DNA from: Pseudomonadota bacterium
Lineage (GTDB): Bacteria > Pseudomonadota > Alphaproteobacteria > Rhizobiales > Rhizobiaceae
Direction: 5' to 3'
Assembly: GCA_023399465.1 (NCBI GenBank)
Contig: JAEWPB010000020.1
Location: forward strand, 22,380-86,379
DNA: 64,000 nt
The position numbers were made by a program, and so were the translations under genes. How positions within the stretch are numbered: the first letter of the stretch is position 1; every line of letters begins with the position of its first letter. The notes under the pieces are model-generated. The model was not told the origin of the DNA and made no database searches. It was given only the letters and a program-made list of their open reading frames with translations. Positions 15,274-45,063 of the stretch are shown piece after piece.

Positions 15274-16115
15274 GCGGTCACCTTGCCTTCCCTGCCCGCA
15301 AACGGATCGGGCAACAATTTGCGGCCGCCAAGCGCGCCGAGCCAATCGAGCGAACCCCTCAGCCGCACGACCTCACCGACGACGACGATCGCCGGCGGCT
15401 CGATGCCTGATGAGGCGACGTCGGCAGCCGCCCGGCCGAGTGTTGTCTCAAGCACCGCCTGCCCCGATGTCGCGGCATTGCAGACGAAGGCCACCGGCTC
15501 GTCCGCCGGGCGCCCCGCGGCCATGAGGTTGGTGCTGATCTGGGCGATATGCTTCATCGCCATATACATGACGATGACCGGCGATCCCTTGCCGACGGCA
15601 TCCCAGTCGATCCGGTCCGGCACCAGCCCGGAGGAATCGTGGCCGGTCAGGAAGGTGACGGCGTGATTGATCTCGCGATGCGTCACGGGGATGCCGGCAT
15701 AGGAAAGCCCGCCGATGCCGGCGGTGATGCCGGGCACGATACGAAAGGGAATGTTATGCTCGACCAGCGTCAGGGCTTCCTCGCCGCCACGTCCGAACAC
15801 GAATGGATCGCCGCCCTTGAGACGCAACACCCGATGTCCCTCCCGCGCCAGGTCCACGAGGCGCAGCGAAATATCGCGCTGCCTTGCCGAAGGCTTGCCG
15901 CCGCGCTTGCCGGCATATTCGATTGTCGCATCGGTACGTGCCAGTTTCAGGCACTCGTCGTTCACCAGCGCGTCATAGACGATCACATCGGCTTCGGCGA
16001 GGGCTTTGGCCGCCAGCAGGGTCAGCAGGCCCGGATCGCCGGGCCCCGCTCCGACCAACCACACGCTGCCCGGCGCAATCGCCGGAAGGTGGGAAAAAGC
16101 GGTGTCGTTCATCAT
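15270..16115 (-). CDS. cobA: uroporphyrinogen-III C-methyltransferase (SUMT)
   Basis: ORF 15270..16148, likely starting at ATG 16115 (MMNDTAF...). Contains the tetrapyrrole methylase signature VWLVGAGPGDPGLLTL. Confidence 0.8.
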   Translation of the reverse strand: MMNDTAFSHLPAIAPGSVWLVGAGPGDPGLLTLLAAKALAEADVIVYDALVNDECLKLARTDATIEYAGKRGGKPSARQRDISLRLVDLAREGHRVLRLKGGDPFVFGRGGEEALTLVEHNIPFRIVPGITAGIGGLSYAGIPVTHREINHAVTFLTGHDSSGLVPDRIDWDAVGKGSPVIVMYMAMKHIAQISTNLMAAGRPADEPVAFVCNAATSGQAVLETTLGRAAADVASSGIEPPAIVVVGEVVRLRGSLDWLGALGGRKLLPDPFAGREGKVTA

Positions 16116-16227
16116 AATGGTCCTATGCCCGCATCGGGCAAAATGCAATCGCGGAAGGCCAGCGCAACCTTTCTAAGCCCCCGCACCTGAACTATAAGTG
16201 AACCATTACAAAAGTCATAAGCAGACC

Positions 16228-17349
16228 ATGACGCAAGACGCCGAAATCCCGATCACCGCTCCCGACAACGGCCGCAAGCCGCAAGGCGAACTGCGCCGGG
16301 GCTGGACTACCGGCGCCTGCGCCACCGCCGCCACCAAGGCCGCATTGACAGCGTTTATAACCGGCGAGTTTCCCGATCCGGTGACGATCCGCCTGCCGCG
16401 CGGCGAGGAACCGGCTTTTGCGCTTGCGTTCGAAAGCCTCGGGGACGGTTATGCGACGGCCGGCATCGTCAAGGATGCCGGCGACGATCCGGACGTTACC
16501 CACGGCGCGACGATACTGGCGAGTGTTCGTCCGCTCCCGCCCGGCAGCGGCATCCGCTTCGTCGCGGGCGAAGGTGTGGGCACCGTAACCAAGCCGGGGC
16601 TGCCGGTCGGCGTCGGCGAACCGGCGATCAATCCGGTGCCGCGGGCGATGATGACGGCGGAAATCGAGGCGCTCTGCGGCGAATACGGGCTTCCCGCCGA
16701 TGTCGAGGTGACCGTATCGGTGCCCGGCGGCGAGGACATCGCCGCGCAGACGTGGAACCCGCGGCTCGGCATCGTCGGCGGCCTGTCGATCCTCGGCACG
16801 ACAGGCGTGGTCAACCCCTTCTCCTGTTCGGCCTGGATCCACTCGATCCATAGCGGCATCGACGTCGCGCGCGCCGAAGGCCTCACGCATGTGCTCGGCG
16901 CGACCGGCTCGACCTCGGAAAAGGCGGCGCAGGAACTCTACGGACTGCCGGAGGGCGCGCTTCTCGACATGGGCGACTTCGCCGGGGGGCTGCTCAAATA
17001 TCTGCGAGCCCACCCGATCCCGCGACTGACGATCGCCGGCGGCTTCGCCAAGATGGTGAAGCTGGCCCAGGGCGCACTCGACCTGCATTCCTCGCGAAGC
17101 CAGGTGGACATAGCATTTCTGGAATCGCTGATTGCGCAAGACGAGCTGACTCAATCCCTGAAGGACCGGATTCAATCTGCCAACACAGCGCTGGAAGTGC
17201 TTGAAATCACGAACACCCTCGGGATCGACATCGCCACGCCAGTCGCCGTGAAGGCGCGGGAGACCGCACTTGCCGCGCTGCGCGGCGCGCCGGTCGCGGT
17301 TGATATCGTCGTCACCGACCGCAGCGGAAAGATCATCGCCCGTGCCTGA
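16228..17349 (+). CDS. cbiD: cobalt-precorrin-5B (C1)-methyltransferase CbiD
   Basis: ORF 16198..17349, with the ATG at 16228. Contains the signature LRRGWTTGACATAATKAAL typical of CbiD. Confidence 0.8.
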   Translation: MTQDAEIPITAPDNGRKPQGELRRGWTTGACATAATKAALTAFITGEFPDPVTIRLPRGEEPAFALAFESLGDGYATAGIVKDAGDDPDVTHGATILASVRPLPPGSGIRFVAGEGVGTVTKPGLPVGVGEPAINPVPRAMMTAEIEALCGEYGLPADVEVTVSVPGGEDIAAQTWNPRLGIVGGLSILGTTGVVNPFSCSAWIHSIHSGIDVARAEGLTHVLGATGSTSEKAAQELYGLPEGALLDMGDFAGGLLKYLRAHPIPRLTIAGGFAKMVKLAQGALDLHSSRSQVDIAFLESLIAQDELTQSLKDRIQSANTALEVLEITNTLGIDIATPVAVKARETALAALRGAPVAVDIVVTDRSGKIIARA

Positions 17350-18019
17350 AGACAAGATCCTCATTCTCGGCGGCACCAGGGAGGCGGCCGAACTGGCCGC
17401 AAAACTGGTTGGCGAAGGCGGGGCCCATGTCATCACCTCGCTCGCCGGCCGCACCCGCGAACCGGCGCCGGTTGCCGGATCGGTGCGCGTCGGCGGCTTC
17501 GGCGGCGCCGATGGCCTTGCCGCCTATCTTGCAGAAAACCGCATCACCCGCGTAATCGACGCGACGCATCCTTTTGCTCGCACAATCTCGGCAAATGCCG
17601 CGATCGCTTGCCGCGAAACAGGCGTGCAGCTCGAAACGCTTGCCCGCCCGCAATGGGAGCCCGAAGCCGCAGACAGTTGGACCCGTGTCGGCTCCCTGGA
17701 ACAGGCAGCCGCGAAACTCCCCGTCGGCGCTCGCGTATTCCTTGCGCTTGGAAAGCAGCATCTCTCCGCATTCGAACCCCTGCAGGGTCGCCACTTCATA
17801 GTCCGCATGGTCGATGCGCCGGAGACACCATTGTGTTTCGCCAGCCACACGCTGATTCTCGGCAGGCCGGCAATCGATCCGGCGGAGGAAGAGGCGCTTT
17901 TTCGCGAGCACCGCGTCACCCACCTCGTCTGCCGGAACTCCGGCGGATCGGGCGGTCATGCAAAGATCGCCGCCGCCCGTCGCATGGGCCTGCCGGTGAT
18001 CATGATCGAACGACCATGA
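17342..18019 (+). CDS. cobK: precorrin-6A reductase
   Basis: Same frame as ORF 17270..18019. The GTG at 17342 overlaps the cbiD stop. The N-terminus KILILGGTREAAELAAKL is typical of CobK/CbiJ. Confidence 0.75.
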   Translation: MPEDKILILGGTREAAELAAKLVGEGGAHVITSLAGRTREPAPVAGSVRVGGFGGADGLAAYLAENRITRVIDATHPFARTISANAAIACRETGVQLETLARPQWEPEAADSWTRVGSLEQAAAKLPVGARVFLALGKQHLSAFEPLQGRHFIVRMVDAPETPLCFASHTLILGRPAIDPAEEEALFREHRVTHLVCRNSGGSGGHAKIAAARRMGLPVIMIERP

Positions 18020-18063: not shown

Positions 18064-19014
18064 TCAGTGTGCGAGGATCGTCCGGCGGATCAGCGCCAGC
18101 ACGGCTTCGGAATCGACCTCCAGGCAGGCGAGCTGGCTTGGATAGTTGTCCCAGTCGCCCGGCGGGAAGCGGCGGCCGTCCGGCTTCTGGATGGTCTGGC
18201 CGTCGGCAATGCCGCCGCAGACGACGCGGATCGGACCGCTGCGGGTTGTGAACAGCTCCGGCGCCACGACGTAGACGCAGGCGCAGCTGTCATGGACCAT
18301 CATGCCGTCGTCGACGATGTGGGCGTAGAAGTCGATGTAGAACTGCGAGATGCTGTTGAGCAGTTCGACGTGCTCGCCGCCCTCTTCCGCCATCTCGGCC
18401 AGGAAGGTGCGGCTCATGGTGGTCACGCCCGTTACGTCGAGACCGACGACGACGACATTCCAGGGCGCGGTCATCACCACGTCGGCGGCCTCGGGATCAC
18501 CGTGGATATTGGCCTCGGCCACCGGCGTGACGTTGCCGGGGACGTGGAAGTTCCCGCCCATGATGACGACATCCTTGACCAGGCCGGCGATCTCGGGATC
18601 GTGCTTCAGCGCCAGCGCCAGATTGGTCATGCGGCCGACGGCGACCAGACGGACCTCGCCGGGATGGGCGCGCACCGTGTCGATGATGAACTGATAGGCC
18701 GGACGCGGATCCACCGGAGCCTCGATGATTGCGGGCACATCGATATTGCCGAGGCCGTCGTCGCCATGGACGAAGGTCGGCCACTGGCCGGACGGCCGCG
18801 CCGGATCGAAGGTCTCGTTGGCGCCACGGGCGACCGGCACGTCGATCTTCCACTCGCGCTTCAGGAACAAGGCATTGCGGGTCGTGGTCTCGACCGAGGC
18901 GTTTCCGAAAACGGTGGTGATACCGAGGAGATCGATTTCAGGATGACGATGCAGGAACAGCAGCGCCATGGCGTCATCGACGCCGGGATCGGTATCAAAA
19001 ATGACCTTATGCAT
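18064..19014 (-). CDS. nucleoside hydrolase (inosine/uridine-preferring family)
   Basis: ORF 18064..19083, with the ATG at 19014. The N-terminus VIFDTDPGVDDAMALLFL carries the DxDxxxDD motif of IUNH-family hydrolases. Confidence 0.8.
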   Translation of the reverse strand: MHKVIFDTDPGVDDAMALLFLHRHPEIDLLGITTVFGNASVETTTRNALFLKREWKIDVPVARGANETFDPARPSGQWPTFVHGDDGLGNIDVPAIIEAPVDPRPAYQFIIDTVRAHPGEVRLVAVGRMTNLALALKHDPEIAGLVKDVVIMGGNFHVPGNVTPVAEANIHGDPEAADVVMTAPWNVVVVGLDVTGVTTMSRTFLAEMAEEGGEHVELLNSISQFYIDFYAHIVDDGMMVHDSCACVYVVAPELFTTRSGPIRVVCGGIADGQTIQKPDGRRFPPGDWDNYPSQLACLEVDSEAVLALIRRTILAH

Positions 19015-19110
19015 TGGATATGTCCTTCTGATTGTCATGCGCGACGGCGCTGCCAAACGGCCCGCGACAGGGCCAACGACCATAGCCGCAAAAGCATTTG
19101 CCGCAAGGGG

Positions 19111-19890
19111 TCAGACGACGGCGCTCTTCTTCTTGCCCCTGTTGCGCAGCACATGGCTGAAACCGGAATTGTAGAGATCGCTGTCGCGGAAGCTGACCTC
19201 GCCGAAGACCTTGCCGACCATGATCAGCGCGGTGCGGGTGATCTTCGCCTTGCGCACTTCCTCCTGCATGTCCTTCAGCGTCGTGCGGATGAAGAGTTCA
19301 TCCGGCCAGGTCGCGCGGTAGGCCACGATAACAGGGCAATCCTCGCCGTAATACGGCGTCAGCACCTCGCGGACATGGGTGAGGTTGCGGATCGACAGGT
19401 GGATGGCGAGCGTCGCCCGCGACCGCCCGAGAATTTCCAGCGTCTCGAATTCCGGCATCGACGATGCCTTCATCTCCGTGCGGGTGATGATGATCGTCTG
19501 GGCAATCTCGGGAAGCGTCAGCTCGGTCTTCAGCCGCGCGGCGGTGGCGGCAAAGGCCGGGACCCCCGGCACCACCTCATAGGGAATGCCGAGCGCATCG
19601 AGGCGGCGCATCTGTTCGGCGGTCGCGCCATAGATCGAGGGATCGCCGGAATGCACCCGAGCCACGTCCTCGCCGCGCTCGTCAGCCGCGACGATCTCGG
19701 CGATGATCTCGTCGAGATGCATCGGCGCTGTGTCCCGGACGATCGCGCCTTCCGGGGCGGCCCTGACGATCTCCTCCGGCACCAGCGATCCGGCATAGAG
19801 GCAGACCGGGCAGCGCTCGATGAGCTTCAGGCCGCGCACGGTGATGAGGTCGGGCGCGCCGGGGCCGGCACCGATGAAATAGACGGTCAT
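19111..19890 (-). CDS. cobM: precorrin-4 C11-methyltransferase
   Basis: ORF 19111..19956. The ATG at 19890 overlaps the upstream stop. Contains the signature VYFIGAGPGAPDLITVRG. Confidence 0.85.
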   Translation of the reverse strand: MTVYFIGAGPGAPDLITVRGLKLIERCPVCLYAGSLVPEEIVRAAPEGAIVRDTAPMHLDEIIAEIVAADERGEDVARVHSGDPSIYGATAEQMRRLDALGIPYEVVPGVPAFAATAARLKTELTLPEIAQTIIITRTEMKASSMPEFETLEILGRSRATLAIHLSIRNLTHVREVLTPYYGEDCPVIVAYRATWPDELFIRTTLKDMQEEVRKAKITRTALIMVGKVFGEVSFRDSDLYNSGFSHVLRNRGKKKSAVV

Positions 19891-21713
19891 TCTGCTGCTT
19901 CCTTCTTCATGCCGGTCCCGGACTTGCCGGAATAGCCGCGCGGCGTGAACACCCAAGTCTTGCCGTCACCGGTCTTCACGGTGCGGCTTTCAGACGAGCC
20001 GACCACGACGACCGTCAGCATGTCGACATCATCGACGTTAAGTTCGCCGAGCGGCACGACCCGGACCTTCTCGCCATCGCGGCCGAGATTGGTGGCAAGG
20101 ATCACCGGCGTCGAATGCGGCCGGTATTCGAGCAGCGTGTCGCGGGCATAGGCGAGTTGGGTGCGCCGCTTCATCGAAACAGGATTGTAGAAGGCGATGA
20201 CGAAATCGCCCTCGCCCGCCGCCTTCACCCGCCGCTGGATATCCTCCCACGGCGTCAAAAGATCGGAGAGCGAAATGGTGCAGAAGTCATGGGCGAGCGG
20301 CGCGCCGGCGCGGGCGGCAGCCGCCTGCAGAGCTGAGATGCCCGGCGACACCTGCACCTCGATGCGCCGCGCGGCATCAGAAATGCCACCCTTCTCGAAA
20401 AGCTCGAAGACCAGCGTCGCCATCGCATAGATGCCGGCGTCGCCCGAGCAGACGAGCGCCACGTCGCGACCCTGGCCGGCGAGTTCCATCGCGTGGACGA
20501 CGCGCGCCTCCTCCTTGCCGAGGTCGAAGTCATGGCGGATCTTGCCCGCGGCCAGCGGCCCGAGCAGATCGAGGTAGAGCGAATAGCCGACGAGATCGGT
20601 CGAGGCCGCGACCATTGCCGAAACCGCCGGCGAGCGCCAGCGATCGGCGCCGGGACCGATGCCGACGACGAACAGCCTGCCGCGCGAACGGCCGATGGCA
20701 TCGGGATCGACGATCGAGGGCGAGCGGGCAATCGCCGCCGTCGCCCCCTTCGATTTGATCTTCGGAAAAACGAGCTCGCCCTCCGGTCCGGCAGCGGCGA
20801 GCGCCGCGCCCTCTGCGACGCCATGGCAACCGACCTCGGCGAACACCACCTCCGACGGTTTTTTCAGGCGCGGTGTCTGAGCTTCCAGCGTTTCGGCATT
20901 GAAGAAACGCGCCGGCACACCGAGGCTGGCGGCAACCGCATGGATCGCCGTCTCGTCGGCCTTGAGGTCAATGGAGGTCACCGCTGCAATGCTTCTCGCA
21001 GCATAACCGCTTTCGGCAACGGCCCTTTGCGCAAGCGCGATTGCCTCCTCCGTCGATGCGCCGCGCTCGCAGCCCATACCGAGCACCAGCGTCTTCGGAT
21101 AATAGACGAGATCGAGCGGTCCGGCGTCTTCCGGCCGCTCGGAGACGGTAATCGTCACCGCGCCGTCATCGGCAAGGGGGATCCCGCTCGCCGACAGCCA
21201 TCCGGCTTTGCCGACGAGGCGCGCGGTCGCGCCTGCAACCAGTTCGGCCATGACGGACTTGGCATTCTCCGGATTGGCAAGGACGTAACCCGGTGGCGGC
21301 TCGTCGAGCGCCACGCCGAAGCGGATATCGCCTGAAGTCGTCACCGCCGCGTGCCCTTCCAGTCCGGCGGCAAGGAGACGGGCGAGTTCGTTGGCGCCAT
21401 GATGGCCACCGAGCAGCGGCACGACGGAGGCGCCATCCTCGCTGACGGCGAGAACCGGCGGCTCGCGCATCTTGTCGGCAAGCACCGGCGCCAGAAGGCG
21501 GATGACGGCCCCCGAGGCCATGACCGCGATGATCGGCCGGCCCTCGAGGAACAGTCGTTGCAGGTGCGGCTTGAGTTGATCGAAGAGCACGTCGGCGCCG
21601 GCGACGCGCGCGGATGCGCCGTGGAATTCGCCGCCGCTGAGTGCCGCGACCCGGCGTCCGATGGCGAGGGCGGCATCGGACAGAATGACGACGGCCGGTT
21701 TGGTGACGTTCAT
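19887..21713 (-). CDS. cobJ: fusion of full-length CbiG-like protein (N-terminal ~340 aa) with precorrin-3B C17-methyltransferase CobJ/CbiH (C-terminal ~250 aa)
   Basis: 608 aa. The N-terminal part has IIAVMASGAVIRLLAP...VVPLLGGHHGANELARLLA and LVLGMGCERG, which are CbiG N and C domain signatures. The C-terminal part has RLFVVGIGPGADRW...VCSGDAGIYAM, a tetrapyrrole methylase signature. Confidence 0.8.
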   Translation of the reverse strand: MNVTKPAVVILSDAALAIGRRVAALSGGEFHGASARVAGADVLFDQLKPHLQRLFLEGRPIIAVMASGAVIRLLAPVLADKMREPPVLAVSEDGASVVPLLGGHHGANELARLLAAGLEGHAAVTTSGDIRFGVALDEPPPGYVLANPENAKSVMAELVAGATARLVGKAGWLSASGIPLADDGAVTITVSERPEDAGPLDLVYYPKTLVLGMGCERGASTEEAIALAQRAVAESGYAARSIAAVTSIDLKADETAIHAVAASLGVPARFFNAETLEAQTPRLKKPSEVVFAEVGCHGVAEGAALAAAGPEGELVFPKIKSKGATAAIARSPSIVDPDAIGRSRGRLFVVGIGPGADRWRSPAVSAMVAASTDLVGYSLYLDLLGPLAAGKIRHDFDLGKEEARVVHAMELAGQGRDVALVCSGDAGIYAMATLVFELFEKGGISDAARRIEVQVSPGISALQAAAARAGAPLAHDFCTISLSDLLTPWEDIQRRVKAAGEGDFVIAFYNPVSMKRRTQLAYARDTLLEYRPHSTPVILATNLGRDGEKVRVVPLGELNVDDVDMLTVVVVGSSESRTVKTGDGKTWVFTPRGYSGKSGTGMKKEAAE

Positions 21714-22453
21714 GAGCGGGTTCCATCGGATTGGGCGGGGTGAAGCGCCGAGATCCAGCCCTCCTGCCCCTTGTAGATCAGGATGATCGAGAAGTAGGGC
21801 GCGGCGTCTTCGATGACCTCGGCGAGCGGCAGCACGCGCTGCTCGGGCAGGCTGATGCGCTCGAGATAACCGGCAACGCCAACCAGATTCATTTCCTCAA
21901 GCAATTGCCGTATCCTGATGAAATGACGGCCAACCTTGATGATCGCCACCGCGTCGCTGGCATCGATGCGGGCACGCATCAGTTCTGTGTCGAGCGGCCC
22001 AGGAATGATCGTCAGCACATCGTTGCGGGCCGCGAGCGGCCGCCCTAAGGCGGCAGCGCCCGCCATGATCGACGAGACGCCGGGAACGATCTCGGTCTCG
22101 TAACGGCCAGCCAGCCGCTCGAAGAGATACATGAACGAACCATAGAAGAAGGGATCACCTTCGCAGAGCACCGCGACATCGGACCCGGCATCGAGATGAC
22201 GCGACAGGTTTTCAGCGGCCGCGTCATAGACCTCCTGCGCCGGATAGCGCTCGACGCGCATTGGCACCACCATCGGCACTTCCAACTGGCTCGCCGTGAG
22301 GTAAGACGCCGCAATCTGCCGGGCGAAGCTCGGGCCCGTATCCGGCGCGGGATAGGCGACGACGGGCGCGGAGGTCAGTATCCGGTGCGCTTTCAGGGTG
22401 AGCAGTTCCGGATCGCCGGGCCCGAGGCCGAGGCCATAGAGTTTTCCGGTCAT
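21710..22453 (-). CDS. cobI: precorrin-2 C20-methyltransferase
   Basis: 247 aa with KLYGLGLGPGDPELLTLKA and LCEGDPFFYGSF. Its stop and start overlap the neighbouring cob genes. Confidence 0.85.
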   Translation of the reverse strand: MTGKLYGLGLGPGDPELLTLKAHRILTSAPVVAYPAPDTGPSFARQIAASYLTASQLEVPMVVPMRVERYPAQEVYDAAAENLSRHLDAGSDVAVLCEGDPFFYGSFMYLFERLAGRYETEIVPGVSSIMAGAAALGRPLAARNDVLTIIPGPLDTELMRARIDASDAVAIIKVGRHFIRIRQLLEEMNLVGVAGYLERISLPEQRVLPLAEVIEDAAPYFSIILIYKGQEGWISALHPAQSDGTRS

Positions 22454-23682
22454 GCATCCCTCCCCTTGGTCAGGCTCAGGAGCGTCACCGGCATCAGCGA
22501 TTTCCAGCCGCAGTAGCGCCCGACCGGGGCGGCGCGCGCGACCGATATGCGGGTCAGTTCGCCGCCGTACAGGCCGCGAAGTTCGGCAAGGCGCGCCTCG
22601 CCCTCGATGGTGACGGCATTGGCAACCAGTCGCCCGCCGGGCTTCAGTCCCCGCCAGCAGGCATCGAACAGGCCGTCGACGGTGATACCGCCGCCGATGA
22701 ACACGACATCAGGTGCCTCGAGACCATCGAGCGCCGCGGGAGCCTCGCCTTCGATGGTCACAAGATCCGGTGCGCCGAGCGCAACTGCGTTCTCGCGGAT
22801 CATCGCCAGTCGTTCCGGCTTGCTTTCGATCGCAATCGCCCGCGTGCCCATGCCCGAACGCATCCACTCGATGGCGACTGAGCCACAACCGGCGCCGACA
22901 TCCCAGAGAAGCGCGTTCGGAAAGGGCTGGAGCAGCGACAGCGTTGCGGCGCGCACCTCGCGCTTGGTCAGCTGGCCATCATGGCGAAAGGCGTCGTCGG
23001 GCAGGCCCGGCACCGGCGACAGCAGAGCCCCGTCGCTGGCGCAATCGATGGCCAGCGTGTTGAATTGCGCGATATCGGGTGCCTGGGCAAGCAGTTCGCC
23101 GGCGGTCATGCGCAGGATGCGCTCCTCCGGTCCGCCCATGTGCTCGAGAACATGCAGCACGGAAGCACCGAAGCCGCGATCGACAAGGATTCGGGCCACC
23201 TTGCCGACCGTGCTCCCGTCGGAGGTCAGCGCCAGAATGCGCGCGCCCGGCAACAGATGGCGGTTAATCAGTTCGACGGGGCGGGCATGCAGCGAGATCT
23301 GCACCGCCGATTGCAGCGGCCAGCCGAGCCGCGCGGCGGCCAGGGAAAATGCCGATGGCGACGGCAGCACCCGCGCTTCCGCCACATCGAAATAGGTCAG
23401 CAGCGTCGCCCCGATCCCGAAATGCATCGGATCTCCGGTCGCAAGCACCGTGACCGGCCGGCCGCGCCTTTGACGGATCGCCTCGACGGTGTTGTCGAAG
23501 CCGTCTGCCCAGCGCAGGACATCCTTGCCGGCGAGCGGCACGGCCTGTTCCACCCGCTCGGCGACGACGACGGTTTCCGCGGCATCCAGATAGGCTTGTC
23601 CCTCGGGCGTCAGGCTGGCAAGGCCATTGTCGCCGATACCGATGATCGTCAGCCACGGCGTTGAAAATGTTGTGTCAGACAT
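22450..23682 (-). CDS. cobL: precorrin-6Y C5,15-methyltransferase (decarboxylating), CbiE+CbiT fusion
   Basis: ORF 22450..24015, with the ATG at 23682 (MSDTTFSTPWLTIIGIGDNG). Contains the CbiE-type motif ATGDPMHFGIG and the CbiT-type SAM loop LWDVGAGCGSVAIE. Confidence 0.85.
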   Translation of the reverse strand: MSDTTFSTPWLTIIGIGDNGLASLTPEGQAYLDAAETVVVAERVEQAVPLAGKDVLRWADGFDNTVEAIRQRRGRPVTVLATGDPMHFGIGATLLTYFDVAEARVLPSPSAFSLAAARLGWPLQSAVQISLHARPVELINRHLLPGARILALTSDGSTVGKVARILVDRGFGASVLHVLEHMGGPEERILRMTAGELLAQAPDIAQFNTLAIDCASDGALLSPVPGLPDDAFRHDGQLTKREVRAATLSLLQPFPNALLWDVGAGCGSVAIEWMRSGMGTRAIAIESKPERLAMIRENAVALGAPDLVTIEGEAPAALDGLEAPDVVFIGGGITVDGLFDACWRGLKPGGRLVANAVTIEGEARLAELRGLYGGELTRISVARAAPVGRYCGWKSLMPVTLLSLTKGRDA

Positions 23683-25213
23683 TGGTTCCGAGCCTTCCTG
23701 CGAGCGCATTGACGGCGGCTGACGCCATCGCCGAGCCGCCGCGGCGACCTCGAACGGCGATGAACGGTACTCCGCGGGGGTTGGCGACCAGGGCCTCCTT
23801 CGATTCCGCCGCACCGACGAACCCGACCGGAAAGCCGAGGATGATCGCCGGTCTCGGCGCGCCCTGATCGAGAAGTTCGAGCAGGCGGAACAGGGCGGTC
23901 GGGGCATTGCCGATGGCAACGACAGCGCCCTCCATCCGATCGGCCCAGAGGTCGACCTGCGCCGCCGAGCGGGTGTTTTCGATCTCGGCGGCGAGCGGCC
24001 GCACCCGCTCGTCATTGAGGAGGCATATTACATCGTTGTCGGCTGGCAGCAGCCTGCGGATGATGCCATGGCGCACCATCTCGGCGTCGCAAAGAACCGG
24101 CGCCCCGTTTTGCAGCGCCGCCGCGCCTGCTTCGAACGCGCCTTCAGAAAAGGCTATGTCGTCCGCGAGGTCGACCATGCCGCAGGCATGGACCAACCGG
24201 ACGGCAAGGTCCGCCATCCCCTCAGGGAACCGCGCCAGATCCGCTTCCGCACGGATCGTCGCAAACGACTGCGCATAGATTGCGGCCGGGTCGCGGACGT
24301 AGTCGACGACAGGCGCCGGCGGAACGAGATCCTCGTGCCCGAGGCCAAGCATCCAGCCCTCCTCGTTGACCAGAGTGGAGAGGTCTTCCCCGGAAAGCCC
24401 CTTCGGCGGCTGCAGGAGCGTGCGCAACTGCCCGGCGGCATCGAAGCTGGCGAAGGCAAGCGCTGCCGTGCGCACCTGCGCCTCGTCCTTCACCTCGCCA
24501 TGCTTCGGCCGAACCGGAAACAGCGACGGATAGATCTCGGCAAGGACGCAAGGGCCATCGAGAGCCCGGTCGAAATGCGTTTCGAACGGCCAGACGCGAA
24601 CATGTTTCCCAAGAGGACTTTCATCGATGAAGCGCGAAAGGCGCGCGATGCCGAGCATCGCCTGCCCGCCGACGGAACCCGCATAGCAGAGCTTCCACAC
24701 CGGCTGCGCCGTGCGCGCCCGTTGCTCGACAAGCCGACGTTCAGGGATGCCCAACCCGGCGTAATCAGGACGCCTGGGCGCAAGCCCTTCTACCGACCGG
24801 CCATTCGGCACGCCCCAGAACATCGGAGCGGCCGCGAAATGCCGGCGGTTCAACTGCGCTGCCACCTCGAAGCGGTTGTTGGCATTGTCGTCGTCATCCC
24901 GCACCTCTGCCGCAAGCCGCCGCCACAGCGAACGCCAGCTTGCCTCCCCCGACAGACGCTCAGCCGCCCCCTTCGGATAGCCGAAGGCGAAATCGAAACC
25001 GGCAAGCAGCCGCCGCCCCTCGGCAACCGATTTGGCAAGCAGCGTGTCGAGTTCATCCATGAAATCGCGACGCGTCGGAAAATTCCGGGTCCAGACGACT
25101 TCGCTGGTCCTCTCCCGGCGTTCGACCAGGCATGCCCAGATCGAATCCTCGCCGCGCCGGGGAACGCTCGCCGCGGACCAGTCGACCATCAGGTATCGAT
25201 CGAACAGCGCCAT
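23675..25213 (-). CDS. cobH: precorrin-8X methylmutase (CobH/CbiC, C-terminal ~210 aa) fused to a ~300-aa N-terminal domain of unknown function
   Basis: 513-aa ORF. The ATG at 25211-25213 overlaps the cbiX stop (TGATG). The C-terminal part (DYVRDPAAIYAQSFATIRAE...AIGNAPTALFRLLELL...PVGFVGAAESKE) is CobH. The N-terminal 300 aa (MALFDRYLMVDWSAASVPRRGEDSIWACLVER...LAGFDFAFGYPKG...) has a protein-like composition and was not recognised. Confidence 0.8.
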   Translation of the reverse strand: MALFDRYLMVDWSAASVPRRGEDSIWACLVERRERTSEVVWTRNFPTRRDFMDELDTLLAKSVAEGRRLLAGFDFAFGYPKGAAERLSGEASWRSLWRRLAAEVRDDDDNANNRFEVAAQLNRRHFAAAPMFWGVPNGRSVEGLAPRRPDYAGLGIPERRLVEQRARTAQPVWKLCYAGSVGGQAMLGIARLSRFIDESPLGKHVRVWPFETHFDRALDGPCVLAEIYPSLFPVRPKHGEVKDEAQVRTAALAFASFDAAGQLRTLLQPPKGLSGEDLSTLVNEEGWMLGLGHEDLVPPAPVVDYVRDPAAIYAQSFATIRAEADLARFPEGMADLAVRLVHACGMVDLADDIAFSEGAFEAGAAALQNGAPVLCDAEMVRHGIIRRLLPADNDVICLLNDERVRPLAAEIENTRSAAQVDLWADRMEGAVVAIGNAPTALFRLLELLDQGAPRPAIILGFPVGFVGAAESKEALVANPRGVPFIAVRGRRGGSAMASAAVNALAGRLGTNV

Positions 25214-26544
25214 CACGTCTTCTTCATCGATTTCGGCCCGAGCGGATGATCCGCATGCGGATAGGGCGCGTGGTGATGATGGTGATGCCCGTGATCATGG
25301 TGATGGTCGTGATGACCATGGTCGTGGTCGTGGTCGTGATGATGGTGGCCATGGGCATGGCTGTGGTCGTGATTATGATGGTGACCGCAACCGCAGTTCG
25401 GGCCATGCTCGTGCCCGCCGTGCCTGCCGCTCGACGGGGCATCGATCACGGCTTGTAGTTCGTCATCGGGCGCCGCATCGGCAAGGTGGGCATATCTGCC
25501 GCCGAGCGTGAACGAGGCGGAATAGTCGAAGACCGGCTGCAGATCGTTCGGCGCTGCGTGCGAATGCACCGGCGTCCAAGGCAGGCCATGCTCACGGCAA
25601 AACTCCTCCTCTCGGCAGGACGCATCGCAGTCGCCCTTGCACGGACAGTCTTCCAGTCCGCCGCCGATGCCTTCGACGTGGTGGTGATGGCTTTCCTGCG
25701 GCTGGCCGAGATCCGCTTCGAAGCCGAGCACCTGCTCGCGATACTTGCACATCTGGCAGTTCATCACCGCCGCACCGTCGAGGATCTCCTGCACGCGATC
25801 CTGGAAGGTGTCGAGCACGAGCGGATGGTCATTGAGATAGCTCGCCTTGACGAACTGGATGTCGGGATGCCGCGCCGCCACCTCGTCGGTATAGCTGTAG
25901 ATGCGCTTCACCAGCACGCCGGTGAAAAGGAAATACGGGAAGACGATGATGCGCTTGTAGCCGAGTCTCGCGGCATGCGTCAGGCCCGGTTCGACCAGCG
26001 GGAAGGTCACGCCCGAATAGCAGGTCTCGCCCCAGCCGAAGCCCATGCCTTCCCAGAGCATGCGCATCACCTTGGTGGCGTTCGAATTGGCGTCCGGATC
26101 GGACGACCCGCGCCCGACGACCATCAGCAGCGTGTCGTGCCTGTCGATAAATCCGTGCTCGTTGTTGGCCTGATCCACGGCCTCCTGGATGCGATCACCG
26201 GCGGCGCGGATCATCTTCAGGTCGATGCCGAGTTCGCGGCCATAATTGATGACCATCCCAGGGTTCTGGGCCTGGTAGGTGTTGAGCACGGAAGGAATAT
26301 CGTTCTTGGCGTGGCCGGCGGCAAACAGCATGCCCGGCACCGCGAGCACGCGGGTCACGCCTTCGGCGCGCAGCCTGTCGAGGCCGGAGGCGATCACCGG
26401 GTTGCAGAATTCGAGATAGCCGTATTCGACCGGCATGTCGGGATTGCGCGCCTTCAGCGCCTCGGCGATCACGGCGAACTCACGCGCCGCGTTCTGGTTG
26501 CGGCTTCCGTGTCCGCACACCATGATTCCGAGTTTTTCCGTCAT
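25213..26544 (-). CDS. cbiX: long-form CbiX-type sirohydrochlorin cobaltochelatase with Fe-S motif and histidine-rich tail
   Basis: ORF 25213..26574, with the ATG at 26544 after GGAGG. It has two CbiX half-domains (GIMVCGHGSRN and LLMVVGRGSSDP), the Cys motif MNCQMCKY, and a C-terminal tail of about 60 aa (HGGHEHGPNCGCGHHHNHDHSHAHGHHHHDHDHDHGHHDHHHDHGHHHHHH). Confidence 0.8.
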   Translation of the reverse strand: MTEKLGIMVCGHGSRNQNAAREFAVIAEALKARNPDMPVEYGYLEFCNPVIASGLDRLRAEGVTRVLAVPGMLFAAGHAKNDIPSVLNTYQAQNPGMVINYGRELGIDLKMIRAAGDRIQEAVDQANNEHGFIDRHDTLLMVVGRGSSDPDANSNATKVMRMLWEGMGFGWGETCYSGVTFPLVEPGLTHAARLGYKRIIVFPYFLFTGVLVKRIYSYTDEVAARHPDIQFVKASYLNDHPLVLDTFQDRVQEILDGAAVMNCQMCKYREQVLGFEADLGQPQESHHHHVEGIGGGLEDCPCKGDCDASCREEEFCREHGLPWTPVHSHAAPNDLQPVFDYSASFTLGGRYAHLADAAPDDELQAVIDAPSSGRHGGHEHGPNCGCGHHHNHDHSHAHGHHHHDHDHDHGHHDHHHDHGHHHHHHAPYPHADHPLGPKSMKKT

Positions 26545-26720
26545 TTCAAAAGGCCTCCAATGCTTCGTCTTCAACAGGATGCACGAAGCGCCGGAGCTGG
26601 AAAACCAGCTCCGCGGCCATTGGGACAGCTCCGGATCAGACCCCCTGTATGGGTCGGTCGCACCGGAATCTCTTAAGCCTGAAAATCAGGCGCCGTCGCA
26701 CATTGAAAAAAGGTGTAGCC
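26545..26720 (-). promoter_or_regulatory. probable cobalamin riboswitch (atypical) in the cbiX operon leader
   Basis: The minus-strand RNA reads GGCGCCUGAUUUUCAGGCUUAAGAGAUUCCGGUGCGACCGACCCAUACAGGGGGUCUGAUCCGGAGCUGUCCC. This resembles the GGUGCC...AAnAGGGAA..GGUG..AUCC..GCUGnCCC core. Two hairpins follow, immediately upstream of the GGAGG ribosome-binding site. No canonical GCCACUG B12 box is seen. It shares the 12-mer ACCCAUACAGGG with the clear riboswitch at 36510..36795. Confidence 0.5.
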
Positions 26721-29967: not shown

Positions 29968-32900
29968 TCACGCTTTTGCGATACCACCACGCGCCGTCGC
30001 CATGGAAGCGGCTTCCGCAAGCGCGGCGAGATCGAACCTCGCCGAGTTCGAGCGCGGGTTCCAGAGCCCCCGGTCGATCGCTTCCTGCAGCCGCTCGGCC
30101 ATTTCCTTCAGCGCGAGGGGGTTCTTGTCGGCCATGAAATCCCGGACCTCGGCATCCACCACGAAGGCCCGGTAGACGGCTTCGAAGTGATGGTCGCGCA
30201 CGGCACCCGTGGTCGCCGAGAAGGCGAACATGTAATCGACCGTGGCGGCAATCTCGAAAGCGCCCTTGTAGCCGTGACGCATGACGCCGGCGATCCACTT
30301 CGGATTGACCACCCGGGCCCGGACGACCCGGCCGATCTCCTCCTCCAGCGATCGGATCACCGGCTTTTCCGGCCGCGAGTGATCGTTGTGGTAAACGGCA
30401 GGGCGGGCGCCGGAGACATGCTCGATCGCCGCGGTCATGCCGCCCTCGAACTGGTAATAGTCGTCACTGTCGAGAAGGTCATGCTCGCGGTTGTCCTGGT
30501 TCTGCACCACGGCTTCGACAGAACGCAACCGCTCCTCGAAAAGCCCGCGTTCGGCCTTGCCTTCCTCGCCGGCGCCATAGGCATAGCCGCCCCAGACGAG
30601 ATAGGCTTCGGCGAGATCGCCGCGGCGCTCCCAGCCCTTCTCGTCGATCAGCGCCTGCAGGCCAGCGCCGTAAGCGCCCGGCTTCGAGCCGAAGACGCGG
30701 TAGCCGGCGCGGCGGGACGCGGCCTTCGCGTCCATCCCCTCCGCCACCAGACCGGCCGCTTCACGGCGCATGCGGGCTGCAATCGGGTTGTCGGCCTCGT
30801 CCTCGTCGAGTTGGCCGATGGCGCGGATCGCCTTGTCGATGAGCGCGATCTGCTCGGGGAATGCATCGCGGAAAAAGCCGGAGATCCGGAGCGTGACGTC
30901 GACCCGCGGCCGGCGAAGCATGGCGGGCGGAACGATCTCGTAGCCGGTGACGCGGCGCGAGGCATTGTCCCAGACTGGCTTGACGCCGATCAGGGCCAGC
31001 GCCTGGGCGATATCGTCGCCGCCGGTGCGCATGTTCGAGGTGCCCCAGGCGGTCAGGCCGAACGAGGTCGGCCATTCGCCGTGGTCCTGCACGTAGCGGG
31101 TGATGAGAAGTTCGGCCGATTTCTTTCCCAGCTCATAGGCCGCCGCCGTCGGCACCGCGCGACTGTCGACCGAATAGAAATTCCTGCCCGTCGGCAACAC
31201 GTCGGGCCGTCCACGGGTCGGGGCCCCGGATGGCCCGGGCGCCACGAAGCGGCCGGCAAGCCCCGTCAGCAGCGCCTCGATTTCCGCCGGACCGGATTGC
31301 CGGACCGAGGGCGCCAATCGTTGCTCAATCTCATCGAGAACCGCTCTCGTACGCGGCCACGCCTCAGGGCAAGCGCAGGCGCCCTCCACGAGGTTCGCGG
31401 CGAGCAGTTCTATGCGTTCGACAGTGTCGCCATGGGAACGCCACGGGCTTTCCGAGACCGCGACCAGCAGCTCCGGCCTCGGCCCCTGCCATGCGGCCGC
31501 CATGTCGCAATCGAGCGGATCGAAGCCGTCGAGGCCGGCGTCCGCCGCGATCGCCCGCTGCAGGCTGGCGTCACCGCCCTCGCCAAGACCGCGCGGCACG
31601 CGTGCCAGAGCCACGACAAGATCGGTCAGCAGACGGCCTTCGGGAGCGAGCCCGAAGATATGCAGGCCGTCGCGGATCTGCATTTCCTTGAGATCGCAGA
31701 GATAGGCGTCGAGCTTGGCGAGTGCCGTATCCTCCGCCTCGCCCGTTGCGATGCCGGCATCCCGGTCGAGACCGATATCGGTGACGAGTTCGAGGATCTG
31801 CTTCTTCAGCAACCGGAGACGTCGCGGATCGCCGCCCGCCGCTTCGTAGTACTCGTCGACCAGCGCCTCGAGATCCTTGAGCGGCCCATAGCTTTCGGCA
31901 CGCGTCAGCGGCGGCGTCAGATGGTCGATGATGACCGCGCTGGTCCGGCGCTTGGCCTGCGTGCCTTCACCCGGATCGTTGACGATAAAGGGATAGAGAT
32001 GCGGCAGCGGCCCGAACACCGCCTCGGGATAGCAGTTCTCCGAAAGCGCCAGCGCCTTGCCGGGCAGCCATTCGAGGTTGCCGTGCTTGCCCATGTGCAC
32101 GATCGCATGGGCACCATAGACGGTCCGCAGATACGCATAGAACGCGAGATAGCCGTGCGGGGGCACCAGATCCGGCGAGTGATAGGTTTCCTTCGGATCG
32201 ATGTTGTAGCCGCGCGCCGGCTGGATGCAGACCAGCACCTCGCCGAAGCGGGAAAGCGGCAGGGCGAAGCGCCCGTCGATGAAGAATGGGTCAGTCTCAG
32301 GACGTCCCCAGCGGGCGGTGACTTCGCCTTGAATCCTTTCTGGAAGGGTTTTGAAGAACGCATTGTATTGATTCAGCGAAATCGTTTCGCGGATCTCGCG
32401 ATCATGGTTCTCCGCGTTCGTCGGGCCGGCCATCAGGTGGCGCATCAGCGCGTCGCTATCGGCGGGAAGATTGGCGATAGCGTAGCCCTCCCGCGCCATC
32501 GCCCTCAGTACTTCCATGGTGCCCGCGGGCGTATCGAGGCCGACGCCGTTTCCGAGCCGCCCGTCGCGGTTCGGATAGTTGGCCATGATAAGCGCCACGC
32601 GCCGATCCCCGACCGGAGCGCGCCTGAGCCGCGCCCAGTTGGCCGCCAGCTGCGCCACGAAACGGATCCGGTCGTCGAGCGGCTCGTGGCTGACGATGTT
32701 CGTCTGCGTCAGTTCGTCGAAGCGGGCTGCCGACTTGAACGACACCGCCCGCGACAGCACCCGTCCGTCGACCTCCGGGAGCGCCACGTTCATCGCCAGG
32801 TCGCGGGCGGAAAGCCCCTGCGTCGACGTTTCCCAGGCCTCGCGGCTCGAACCGGAGAAGATCGCCTGCAGCACCACGGCGCCGCCTTCGTCGAGCACCG

Positions 32901-33741
32901 TCGGCTGGCGCTCGGCGCCGGGCGCCGAAACGGCAAAACCGGTGGCATTGATCACCACATCCGGTGAGGCTTCGGAAAAGATCGACGTCAGGGTTCCGAC
33001 CGAGACCGCGTCCTTGAGGCTGGCGACGAATACCGGCAGCGGCCGCAGGCCCTCCGCGGCAAGGGCAGCGCACAGGGCTTCAACCGGTCTGGTTTCACCG
33101 CTCTGCACCAGCGCCCGGTAGAAGCAGATGGCCGCGACCGGTGCGATCGCCGGCGAAGACGCACGCTGCTCCCATTCCGCAAGCCCGATCACGCCGCTCC
33201 CCGGCCACCAGATCCCGGCCTTCAGCAGGGGCACGGCCGGTTCCGGGCGCTCGCCACAGTCAAGCATCGCCCTGGCATAGGCCAGGAAGGTGCGGGAATT
33301 GGCCTGACCGCCCTCGATAAGGTAGCTCCACAGCGCGTTGAGATCCGCTTCGGCGACATTGGAGAAAGGGGCAAGCCCCGCATCCGGCTTGTCGTCGCCG
33401 GGCAGCACGGCAATCTTCATGCCGCCGCGCTGGGCGGCCGCATGAAGGGCTTCGAGCGCGTAGTGGAAATAGCTGGCGCCACCGAGCGCGCGGACGATGA
33501 TCAGCCGCGCATGACGCGCGGTGCGCTCGATGTAGGTATCGACCGACATCGGGTGCTTCAGCGCCATCAGGCTCGCCAGTCTCAGGGAAACGGCTCCGGG
33601 CTCAAGCGCGTGCGCGGCGGCGATGGCCGCAAGCTCGGTATCGGCGGCCGAGAGAAACAGGACGTCGCCGGGCGTCTGGCCGAGGTCGATGGCCTCGTCG
33701 CCATCGGCAATCGAACCTTTCTGGGCGAGCAAAAGATGCAT
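29968..33741 (-). CDS. cobN: cobaltochelatase large subunit CobN
   Basis: ORF 29968..33774, likely starting at ATG 33741 (MHLLLAQKGSI...). About 1257 aa of the CobN/Mg-chelatase H family (e.g. HMGKHGNLEWLPGK), located after cobW. Confidence 0.9.
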   Translation of the reverse strand: MHLLLAQKGSIADGDEAIDLGQTPGDVLFLSAADTELAAIAAAHALEPGAVSLRLASLMALKHPMSVDTYIERTARHARLIIVRALGGASYFHYALEALHAAAQRGGMKIAVLPGDDKPDAGLAPFSNVAEADLNALWSYLIEGGQANSRTFLAYARAMLDCGERPEPAVPLLKAGIWWPGSGVIGLAEWEQRASSPAIAPVAAICFYRALVQSGETRPVEALCAALAAEGLRPLPVFVASLKDAVSVGTLTSIFSEASPDVVINATGFAVSAPGAERQPTVLDEGGAVVLQAIFSGSSREAWETSTQGLSARDLAMNVALPEVDGRVLSRAVSFKSAARFDELTQTNIVSHEPLDDRIRFVAQLAANWARLRRAPVGDRRVALIMANYPNRDGRLGNGVGLDTPAGTMEVLRAMAREGYAIANLPADSDALMRHLMAGPTNAENHDREIRETISLNQYNAFFKTLPERIQGEVTARWGRPETDPFFIDGRFALPLSRFGEVLVCIQPARGYNIDPKETYHSPDLVPPHGYLAFYAYLRTVYGAHAIVHMGKHGNLEWLPGKALALSENCYPEAVFGPLPHLYPFIVNDPGEGTQAKRRTSAVIIDHLTPPLTRAESYGPLKDLEALVDEYYEAAGGDPRRLRLLKKQILELVTDIGLDRDAGIATGEAEDTALAKLDAYLCDLKEMQIRDGLHIFGLAPEGRLLTDLVVALARVPRGLGEGGDASLQRAIAADAGLDGFDPLDCDMAAAWQGPRPELLVAVSESPWRSHGDTVERIELLAANLVEGACACPEAWPRTRAVLDEIEQRLAPSVRQSGPAEIEALLTGLAGRFVAPGPSGAPTRGRPDVLPTGRNFYSVDSRAVPTAAAYELGKKSAELLITRYVQDHGEWPTSFGLTAWGTSNMRTGGDDIAQALALIGVKPVWDNASRRVTGYEIVPPAMLRRPRVDVTLRISGFFRDAFPEQIALIDKAIRAIGQLDEDEADNPIAARMRREAAGLVAEGMDAKAASRRAGYRVFGSKPGAYGAGLQALIDEKGWERRGDLAEAYLVWGGYAYGAGEEGKAERGLFEERLRSVEAVVQNQDNREHDLLDSDDYYQFEGGMTAAIEHVSGARPAVYHNDHSRPEKPVIRSLEEEIGRVVRARVVNPKWIAGVMRHGYKGAFEIAATVDYMFAFSATTGAVRDHHFEAVYRAFVVDAEVRDFMADKNPLALKEMAERLQEAIDRGLWNPRSNSARFDLAALAEAASMATARGGIAKA

Positions 33742-33818
33742 GCGGCCTCTCCGGGAAATGCCTTGCCGCTCCATCCGACCGTGGCCGGAGGAGCGGCGAT
33801 ATGTCGATCGGTCGCGGC

Positions 33819-34889
33819 TTACAGACCGGCGATCGCCGAGCGCACGGCAGCCTCATCCATGTCATGCAGGCCGATCACGACCAGCCGGGTGGCGCGGGTC
33901 TCCCCCGGCGCCCAGGCACGGTCGAAATAGTGATCGATGCGGCTGCCTACGGCCTGGACGACGAGGCGCATCGGCTTGCCCGGCACATCGGCAAAGCCCT
34001 TGAGGCGCAGGATGTCGTTGGCCTCGATGACCGCCTTCAGCCCGTCCACGAAGGCCGCGGGGTCGCCGACCGCGCCATGCTCGATAACGAAGCTGTCGAA
34101 TTCGTCATGGTCGTGGTGATGGTCGTGCGGCTCGCCGCTCTCGTGCAGCGCCTCATGTTCCCGCTCGTGGTGGGATTTTCGGTTGTCGATATCGCCTTCG
34201 GTGCCGATTCCGAGCCCGAGCAGCACGGCAGCCGAAACCTCGCCGTTTCGGGCCTCGATCATCGCCGGCCGGCGGTCGATCCGCGACGCCACTTCCGCCT
34301 TCACCCGGCTCATGCCATCGGCATCGAGAAGGTCAGACTTGTTGAGCACGATCAGGTCGGCGCAGGTAAGCTGGTCCTCGAAGAGCTCTTCCAGCGGGCT
34401 TTCGTGGTCGAGGCTTTCGTCCCCGGCGCGCGCTGCCTCCACCCTGTCATGATCGTCGGCAAAGCGGCCGGCCGCGACAGCGGCGCTGTCGACGACAGTG
34501 ACCACGCCGTCGACCGTCACCTGGGTACGAATGTCAGGCCAGTTGAAGGCGGCGACAAGCGGCTGCGGCAATGCCAGCCCCGAGGTTTCGATGACGATGT
34601 GATCGGGGCGGTTGTGCCTTTCCAGAAGCTTCGTCATCGTCGGGATGAAATCGTCGGCCACCGTGCAGCAGATGCAGCCGTTGGTCAGCTCGATGATGTC
34701 GTCCTCGCTGCAGTTTTCCGCACCGCAGCCCTTCAGCACGTCGCCATCGACGCCGAGATCGCCGAATTCATTGATGATCAGCGCGATCTTCCTGCCATTG
34801 GCGTTCTCCAGAAGGTTGCGGATCATCGTCGTCTTGCCGGCGCCGAGAAAGCCGGTGATGACGGTTGCGGGGATCTTTCCCTGCATCAT
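33819..34889 (-). CDS. cobW: CobW GTPase metallochaperone
   Basis: 356 aa with the P-loop VITGFLGAGKTTMI, the metal motif NGCICCTV, and the His-rich insert HHEREHEALHESGEPHDHHHDHDE. Confidence 0.9.
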   Translation of the reverse strand: MMQGKIPATVITGFLGAGKTTMIRNLLENANGRKIALIINEFGDLGVDGDVLKGCGAENCSEDDIIELTNGCICCTVADDFIPTMTKLLERHNRPDHIVIETSGLALPQPLVAAFNWPDIRTQVTVDGVVTVVDSAAVAAGRFADDHDRVEAARAGDESLDHESPLEELFEDQLTCADLIVLNKSDLLDADGMSRVKAEVASRIDRRPAMIEARNGEVSAAVLLGLGIGTEGDIDNRKSHHEREHEALHESGEPHDHHHDHDEFDSFVIEHGAVGDPAAFVDGLKAVIEANDILRLKGFADVPGKPMRLVVQAVGSRIDHYFDRAWAPGETRATRLVVIGLHDMDEAAVRSAIAGL

Positions 34890-44599: not shown

Positions 44600-44613
44600 G
44601 AACGCAATCACCG

Positions 44614-45059: not shown

Positions 45060-45063
45060 ACGC

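Follow-up and report, generated by a model that had tools for sequence, protein, structure and literature searches.

The X-cobH locus

We analysed a window of 64,000 nucleotides (nt) from a Rhizobiaceae genome (Pseudomonadota bacterium, assembly GCA_023399465.1, contig JAEWPB010000020.1, positions 22,380 to 86,379 of the forward strand), which carries a cobalamin (vitamin B12) biosynthesis cluster. Our subject is one gene of this cluster, in which the precorrin-8X methylmutase CobH is preceded in the same reading frame by a domain of about 300 amino acids (aa), called X here. The X-cobH frame lies on the minus strand at 25213..23675 including the stop codon and encodes 512 aa from its ATG, while an alternative in-frame start, GTG at 25216, would give 513 aa. 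The gene and its direct neighbours are as follows, in positions of the window.

25213..26574, minus strand: long-form cbiX (PF01903, E=1e-53), its stop overlapping the start of X by 1 nt
24326..25213, minus strand: X domain, aa 1-296 (AlphaFold2 model with a predicted local distance difference test score, pLDDT, of 94.4 and a predicted template modelling score, pTM, of 0.93; conserved; no Pfam match; corresponds to the 'unknown domain' of NF011066)
24350..24352, minus strand: internal ATG, Met288, which with its upstream motif occupies 24350-24366 and would yield a 225-aa CobH
24305..24325, minus strand: short, flexible linker, aa 297-303 (pLDDT 74-79 here; drop of pTM in the full-length model)
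23678..24304, minus strand: CobH/CbiC domain, precorrin-8X (cobalt-precorrin-8) methylmutase, aa 304-512 (PF02570, NF006136)
23677-23675, minus strand: stop codon of X-cobH
22450..23682, minus strand: cobL (cbiE+cbiT; TIGR02467 and TIGR02469)

The stop codon of cbiX (TGA, 25215-25213) and the start codon of X-cobH (ATG, 25213-25211) have one base in common, reading GTGATG on the minus strand, and the junction in minus-strand letters is ...GAAGAAGACGTGATGGCG. This overlap, which the initial annotation had pointed out as TGATG, is seen again in most Rhizobiaceae and Devosia loci. At the other end the ATG of cobL at 23682 gives an 8-nt overlap with the cobH stop, and cbiX, X-cobH and cobL are therefore a translationally coupled chain. 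X has no stop codon of its own and hence can only be produced as the fusion. The ATG of Met288 is preceded by GAGGAGG, with GGAGG 5 nt upstream, and this GGAGG is made by the codons of the invariant EEGW motif of X; in the homologs the position of Met288 is mostly Ile, i.e. the Met is not conserved. Met288 is a candidate internal start, from which a short CobH may be made besides the fusion.

The C-terminal part is, as judged from its profile matches, an ordinary and canonical CobH/CbiC methylmutase. PF02570 (CbiC) is the sole Pfam match of the whole protein (aa 312-505, E=2e-71, 239.9 bits against a cutoff of 22.5), and the NCBIfam model NF006136 for precorrin-8X methylmutase covers aa 303-506 with 331.7 bits against a curated cutoff of 276, in agreement with the earlier observation that only the last 210 aa or so resemble CobH. 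H342, which lies in the motif R-x-x-H-A-C-G-M, is near-invariant among 37 fused homologs; it may correspond to the active-site histidine of CobH, His43 in P. denitrificans.

X is a conserved and widespread protein family

No Pfam family matches aa 1-301 even at E<=10. The only named model found to match X is the 'unknown domain' of NF011066, at profile positions 167-445 (E=1e-53, 182.7 bits against a cutoff of 596). Using aa 1-301 as the query, we collected 3,029 proteins at E<=1e-3 from a collection clustered at 90% identity, and in a library clustered at 50% identity 1,788 clusters match X, 628 of them below 1e-30. The region is thus conserved at the protein level in relatives. The GC content at third codon positions (GC3) of the N-terminal part is 0.76. 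Compared with one 95%-identical relative (L092), the ratio of nonsynonymous to synonymous substitution rates (dN/dS) comes to 0.118 in the X part (aa 1-296) against 0.190 in the CobH remainder, showing that X is under purifying selection and at least as constrained as CobH. The single long frame that had been proposed from the letters alone is genuine, given this ratio, 46 fused loci and a confident fold prediction. Likewise its first 300 aa, for which no match to a cobalamin enzyme had been seen, turn out to be a well-folded, conserved domain with no Pfam family.

X is an autonomous, widespread and uncharacterised family rather than an appendage of CobH, and in the 512-aa protein the genes of two proteins that are otherwise independent have been fused. 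Its sequences are already public under three contradictory labels, namely 'precorrin-8X methylmutase', 'CbiG' and 'molybdopterin guanine dinucleotide synthesis'. The name CbiG, which NCBI gives to some stand-alone copies, was rejected, as hhalign against the window's own CbiG gave a probability of 0.08% and no CbiG Pfam family matches; it has probably spread from fusions of X to CbiG_C. A 39-residue match of X to the ribosomal protein uL5 (E=0.001 in the sequence search of the PDB) disappeared with a profile query and was treated as chance. Our literature searches found no published description of X, and the public sequencing runs yielded no RNA run and nothing closer than relatives sharing 26% of the k-mers or less.

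Predicted fold and conserved residues of X

We predicted the structure of X with AlphaFold2 from a 40-sequence alignment, which gave the pLDDT and pTM listed above. The model has strands at 6-11, 25-33, 36-45 and 69-73 and a helix at 48-64 between the third and the fourth; after a mostly helical insertion of about 130 residues come a fifth strand at 222-226 and a helix at 242-259. The core order of strand 1, strand 2, strand 3, helix, strand 4, then strand 5 and helix is the RNase-H-like topology, and according to the model X is a single RNase-H-like core with a helical insertion. Foldseek searches against the PDB and BFVD found no significant neighbour of X. The best E-values are 0.028 (PDB) and 0.007 (BFVD), weak matches with template modelling (TM) scores of 0.13-0.2 over 70-90 residues, and all of these have RNase-H/ASKHA folds (Ppx/GppA, FtsA, YqgF, RuvC, the C-terminal part of UvrC, terminase nuclease). 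We also considered membership in DUF429, another RNase-H-like family; its Pfam hidden Markov model (HMM) matches 0 of 87 diverse X members at E<=10, nor does it match a distant paralog at E<=1, and the assignment was dropped.

Alignments of 40, 87 and 10 sequences show four carboxylates that are either invariant or reach a conservation of at least 90%: D11 (25183-25181) after strand 1, D74 (24994-24992) after strand 4, E226 (24538-24536) after strand 5 and D243 (24487-24485) at the start of the following helix, all on the minus strand. From these places we infer that they occupy the canonical metal-ligand positions of RNase-H-fold enzymes, in line with Majorek et al. 2014 (PMC3985635). In the 87 diverse sequences conservation gathers at the strand ends, with D11-W12-S13 at strand 1, D74-F75-x-F-G-Y-P80 at strand 4 and E226-x-x-P-S at strand 5. 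It extends to R48, N110, N113, R114, N122, R160, G182, Q184 and W208-P209-F210, and in the C-terminal part to D243 and Q246 at the helix start and to E284-E285-G-W287. R48, R114 and R160 are invariant arginines, and many aromatic residues are conserved; this arginine triad and the aromatics would suit an anionic planar ligand. No conserved Cys or His and no redox-cofactor motif is present in the X alignments.

In the full-length AlphaFold2 model both domains are predicted with high confidence, pTM is 0.67 compared with 0.93 for X alone, and pLDDT dips at aa 290-310, which indicates two rigid bodies on a flexible tether.

X in the cobalamin loci of relatives

A scan of one genome per species gave 533 relatives, and the counts given here are from the best 80 loci. 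In 64 of them cbiX lies directly upstream of X, followed by cbiC-cobL-cobI-cbiG/cobJ-cobM as far as the contig reaches. These loci belong to Rhizobiaceae, Devosiaceae, Aureimonas, Ahrensia, Magnetospirillum, Defluviicoccus, Stellaceae, Asaia and Oceanibium, so that the cbiX-X slot spans Rhizobiales, Rhodospirillales, Acetobacteraceae and Rhodobacterales. It is the slot directly upstream of cobH that cobG has in classical clusters (Azospirillum, R. phaseoli).

Whether orthologous clusters encode X as a separate gene was a check put forward in the initial annotation, and they do: X and cbiC are both present in 67 loci, fused in 46, some of which are in complete genomes, and split in 21 where X stands alone. 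Most of these loci thus have the fused form, and the two genes have joined or come apart on repeated occasions. In Rhizobium sp. AG855 and in a Devosia genome, for example, X is a separate gene of 299-301 aa between cbiX and a cbiC of 207-214 aa, and its start and stop codons overlap with those of its neighbours. The linker length differs by about 70 aa among the homologs. Several genomes of Allorhizobium and Rhizobium (loci L008, L016, L019, L021, L022 and L026) have an extra 160-240 nt between X and cbiC (at about 10890-11130), which is read as an in-frame low-complexity linker of about 70 aa, or in L008 splits the genes and leaves a 372-aa form of X (P0033).

X outside cobalamin loci

X is also fused to other enzymes of cobalamin synthesis and of molybdenum cofactor (Moco) synthesis. 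We found it fused to CbiG_C/CobE (P0191 and P0242, the former followed by a cobM-like gene), to a tetrapyrrole methylase (TP_methylase; P0205, P0216 and P0244), to MoeA (P0178; Rubrimonas, Alloyangia and Salipiger) and to MobB (NCBIfam NF011066, i.e. PRK14495), as well as to a class II aldolase and to several undefined N-terminal extensions. Ruegeria sp. TM1040 and Phaeobacter inhibens have the gene order fdhD-mobA-mobB-X-moeA, with a 4-nt overlap at each junction of mobA-mobB-X-moeA in P. inhibens, and Alloyangia has the same Moco gene order with X and moeA fused and fdhF nearby. The proteins closest to the Ruegeria X number more than 100, those with a named source being from Roseobacteraceae, and bear the NCBI name 'molybdopterin guanine dinucleotide synthesis'. 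In 16 of the 80 genome loci no cob gene is found within 10 kb and no Moco gene nearby either.

The Moco-linked copies keep every invariant residue, and these residues are common to the X proteins linked to B12, to those linked to Moco and to the remaining ones. Looking for residues specific to the cob-linked subfamily, we found none; no position separates cob-linked X from the rest, which makes it probable that all copies have one and the same biochemical activity. A restriction of X to CobH is not supported, as an X with the same residues stands in Moco operons and next to rRNA-modification genes.

Possible functions of X

Our analysis suggests that X is a functional part of metallocofactor assembly and not a chance neighbour, because it was joined independently to five enzymes of the B12 or Moco pathway and keeps a fixed, translationally coupled place in two cofactor operons that are unrelated to each other. 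The reading we favour, to which we would give about an even chance, is that X serves metallocofactor assembly lines as an accessory enzyme or as an adaptor, tethered here to CobH. X would dock on late-stage or metal-insertion enzymes, i.e. CbiX, CobH, CobL and CobE in the B12 pathway and MobB and MoeA in the Moco pathway. In a metal-dependent site it would bind an anionic intermediate of the cofactor or process it, and with a putative divalent-metal site and an arginine-lined anion site it would aid the hand-off of the intermediate between enzymes. The flexible linker to CobH would keep the two activities in a 1:1 ratio and hold them close. While the fusions, the synteny, the coupling and the purifying selection are seen directly in the genomes and the fold class in the predicted model, metal binding, ligand and hand-off role are what we infer. 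What the partners have in common is that they are late-stage or metal-insertion enzymes, and the intermediates of CbiX, CobL, CobH, CobE, MobB and MoeA are anionic, labile and metal-bearing. The extra or scaffolding activity imagined in the initial annotation is still plausible, though as that of a general module more than of an extension of CobH.

A precedent by analogy for such an accessory role comes from the alpha-proteobacterium Methylorubrum (M. extorquens), where MoeA and MobB form a metal-insertion platform and MobB has been proposed to organise or channel intermediates (PMC13197769). The M. extorquens MobB probably has no X.

Several points weigh against this reading. The X-TP_methylase fusion P0216 lies away from cbiX, and the link to metal insertion is hence not universal. 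Near-identical X proteins occur outside cofactor clusters, translationally coupled between a gene for an S4/pseudouridine synthase (rsuA-like) and rsmD in genomes labelled Marinicaulis, Parvularculaceae and Caulobacterales, and in R. leguminosarum a distant paralog follows parE with a 1-nt overlap; these rsmD and parE contexts are hints of a nucleic-acid role. A nuclease, too, would be expected to have such an intact tetrad of carboxylates. The full-length model has no fixed interface between X and CobH, and the assignment as a whole draws on sequence and predicted structure. Nor is any ring-stage step of B12 synthesis known to call for phosphoryl or hydrolytic chemistry.

The R. leguminosarum paralog, on pRlX5, is a protein of 261 aa (L091, 5001-5786) with 26% identity, and it keeps DWS, D-F-x-F-G-x-P, E-x-Y-P and EGW.

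The alternative that survives best, though we consider it unlikely, is that X is a nuclease of the RNase-H/RuvC/YqgF kind acting on RNA or RNA:DNA hybrids. In that case X would stand in cofactor operons for a regulatory reason, mRNA processing, or by accident, and being fused to CobH would be biochemically meaningless; Rv2228c would be a parallel. The RNase-H-like fold, whose carboxylates lie at strand 1, strand 4 and the C-terminal helix, would fit, as would the coupling of X between the rsuA-like gene and rsmD and the existence of the parE pair; moreover RNase HII activity has been reported for DUF429, another RNase-H-like orphan, and a fusion of RNase HI to CobC is known (PMC4429107; PMC3985635). 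However, each of the five partners to which X was independently fused works in B12 or Moco synthesis, and across families X keeps its fixed slot in the operons of both cofactors. None of the 87 X members is matched at E<=10 by a Pfam nuclease family or by DUF429, and the structural matches, with their TM scores of 0.13-0.2, cover only about 70-90 residues.

Still less probable, in our view, is that X acts as a small-molecule phosphoesterase or nucleotidyl-transferase on cofactor intermediates or by-products that bear a nucleotide, such as adenylylated molybdopterin (MPT-AMP), molybdopterin guanine dinucleotide (MGD), GTP/pyrophosphate or cobinamide-GDP, for instance as a MogA analogue or a pyrophosphate-removing activity. 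The predicted site resembles a two-metal carboxylate site with an arginine triad, X stands right between MobB and MoeA and has fusions to the one or the other, and the top PDB matches in Foldseek are Ppx/GppA phosphatases, albeit weak ones. Since mog is dispensable for the tungsten branch in M. extorquens, an alternative activation chemistry may exist (PMC13197769). But in B12 clusters X goes with the nucleotide-free ring-stage enzymes CbiX, CobH, CobL and CobE and does not travel with cobU, cobS or cobT, and the Foldseek probabilities are low.

It is quite improbable that X and the long CbiX together supply a missing ring step, replacing CobG/CobZ (precorrin-3B synthase) or another enzyme in alpha-proteobacteria that have cobN and lack cobG. 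This would agree with the position of cbiX-X in the cobG slot upstream of cobH and with cobN and cobW beside cbiX. The initial annotation had noted that cobG, cobZ and cobF are missing, and indeed none of them is found among the scanned open reading frames (ORFs) of the window, but the pathway gap which it read into this does not hold. The ring-step genes cbiX, cbiL/cobI, cbiG-cbiH, cbiF, cbiD, cbiJ, cbiET, cbiC and cbiA are all in the cluster, and with cbiX, cbiG and cbiD the early-cobalt route is complete on paper, every ring step being encoded. In addition X has no conserved Cys or His or redox-cofactor motif, and the same residues are kept in copies from Moco operons and from non-cofactor loci.

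That the long frame is an artefact of a wrong start or a frameshift, only a CobH of about 210-225 aa being made, is effectively refuted by the dN/dS of X, the 46 independent fused loci, the start overlapping the cbiX stop as in homologs and the confident fold, even though Met288 lies 5 nt after a GGAGG and long spurious ORFs are common in this window of 64% GC.

Returning to X as an accessory factor of metallocofactor assembly, a stronger form of the reading, which we put forward tentatively as a possibility with the balance somewhat against it, is that X is a new shared component of the cobalamin and molybdenum/tungsten cofactor pathways. It would be a metal-dependent enzyme or carrier that links the metal-insertion enzyme (CbiX, or MoeA-MobB) to the next one and is needed for efficient output in alpha-proteobacteria. 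If true, it would represent a new class of cofactor-assembly factor on the RNase-H fold. The recognition of X as a single family, its RNase-H-like fold and its occurrence in both B12 and Moco operons are new as far as we can tell.

Both B12 and Moco biosynthesis are regarded as essentially complete, yet in many alpha-proteobacteria the core of both contains the translationally coupled X, e.g. that of B12 in Agrobacterium vitis and Magnetospirillum and that of the molybdenum cofactor in Phaeobacter. Should X be required or boost the flux, it would matter for the reconstruction of pathways from genomes, for the engineering of B12 or formate dehydrogenase (FDH) production, and for how labile metal-cofactor intermediates pass between enzymes. 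Should it be a nuclease, its repeated fusions would be a caution against inferring function from gene fusions.

Comparison with known systems

The closest known relatives are the proteins of NF011066 (PRK14495, 'putative MGD biosynthesis protein MobB/unknown domain fusion protein') and those of Roseobacteraceae, whose homology to X extends along its entire length (E=1e-53; 36-41% identity by tblastn) and includes the same invariant residues. Their partner is MobB or MoeA of the Moco pathway, whereas the X of the window is joined to CobH and has no MobB part. With 183 bits against 596 the window protein stays below the cutoff of NF011066, being homologous to its 'unknown domain' only and having no match to the P-loop MobB. 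The names of these proteins come from genomic context only.

The archaeal CbiX-CbiC protein (NF004449, sirohydrochlorin cobaltochelatase/precorrin-8X methylmutase) is also a CbiC fusion, one in which the last ring enzyme is linked with the chelatase end of the pathway, and NF004449 matches the CbiC domain of the window protein at 2e-31. Its N-terminal partner, however, is the chelatase itself, whereas in the window CbiX is a separate gene and the unrelated X stands in between.

Rv2228c of M. tuberculosis and MSMEG_4305 consist of RNase HI fused to a CobC-like phosphatase and thus combine an RNase-H-fold domain with a cobalamin enzyme as X-CobH does (PMC4429107). The domain there is a canonical RNase HI with demonstrated activity, while X has no RNase HI sequence match and its partners are ring-stage enzymes. 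DUF429 (PF04250), an orphan of RNase-H-like clade D, resembles X in its predicted single RNase-H-like domain with conserved acidic residues in strands 1 and 4, in being mostly single-domain and in its conserved, non-mobile genomic context (PMC3985635), but no HMM match connects the two, and the likeness is seen at the level of the fold class. Non-catalytic accessory proteins of the CobE/MobB type occur in the same operons as X, are fused to it in some genomes and have been proposed to have organising or carrier roles. Their folds are unrelated to that of X, which has an enzyme-like set of invariant polar residues.

The remainder of the cobalamin cluster and its surroundings

Besides the genes listed above, the cluster contains the following features.

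21710..22453, minus strand: cobI/cbiL (TIGR01467)
19887..21713, minus strand: cbiG-cobJ(cbiH) fusion of 608 aa (CbiG_N, CbiG_C and TP_methylase; NCBIfam)
19111..19956, minus strand: cobM/cbiF (TIGR01465)
18064-19083, minus strand: inosine-uridine-type nucleoside hydrolase (RihC-like), directly after cobM
17270..18019, plus strand: cbiJ/cobK (PF02571, E=1e-66)
16198..17349, plus strand: cbiD (PF01888, E=1e-90)
36431-36801, minus strand: cobalamin riboswitch, the only one in the window and unusually long (371 nt against a model of 189 positions)

Further B12 genes of the window are cobA, cobB, cobD, cbiB and cobQ. The riboswitch is followed by a cbtB-cbtA-cobU-cobW-cobN-cobO run; the cbiX-X-cobH operon has no cobalamin riboswitch. 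The long CbiX has two CbiX domains, a Cys-rich segment (MNCQMCK..., MxCxxC) and then a His-rich tail of about 60 residues. Two cobalt-insertion systems thus lie side by side on the minus strand, the long CbiX (25213-26574) and cobN with cobW (29968-34889), and this pairing of cbiX with cobN/cobW is repeated in many related loci. The cbiG-cobJ(cbiH) fusion is kept in all X-type clusters examined, and the RihC-like hydrolase is kept after cobM in nearly all cob loci of Rhizobiaceae.

At the edge of the cob cluster hemN, for an oxygen-independent coproporphyrinogen oxidase, is divergent from a gene for a Crp/Fnr-family regulator (9671-11973). Two plus-strand ORFs in or beside the cluster, at 15549-16190 (213 aa) and 38050-39060 (336 aa), have coding-like GC3 and no Pfam or NCBIfam match.

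A corrinoid-dependent methyl-transfer module (41445-59257) adjoins the B12 cluster. Its members are a betaine-type ABC transporter (OpuAC, ProW-like), a betaine-homocysteine methyltransferase, DUF1638, GbdR, a non-Pyl MttB-family methyltransferase (46654-48231, minus strand), a corrinoid protein (48486-49190), a pterin-binding methyltransferase (53118-54086), a RamA/AcsV-like reductive activase (54194-56368) and formyltransferase-like and MTHFR-like genes. The module probably serves the demethylation of glycine betaine or a quaternary amine, and if so, this would explain a high demand for B12.

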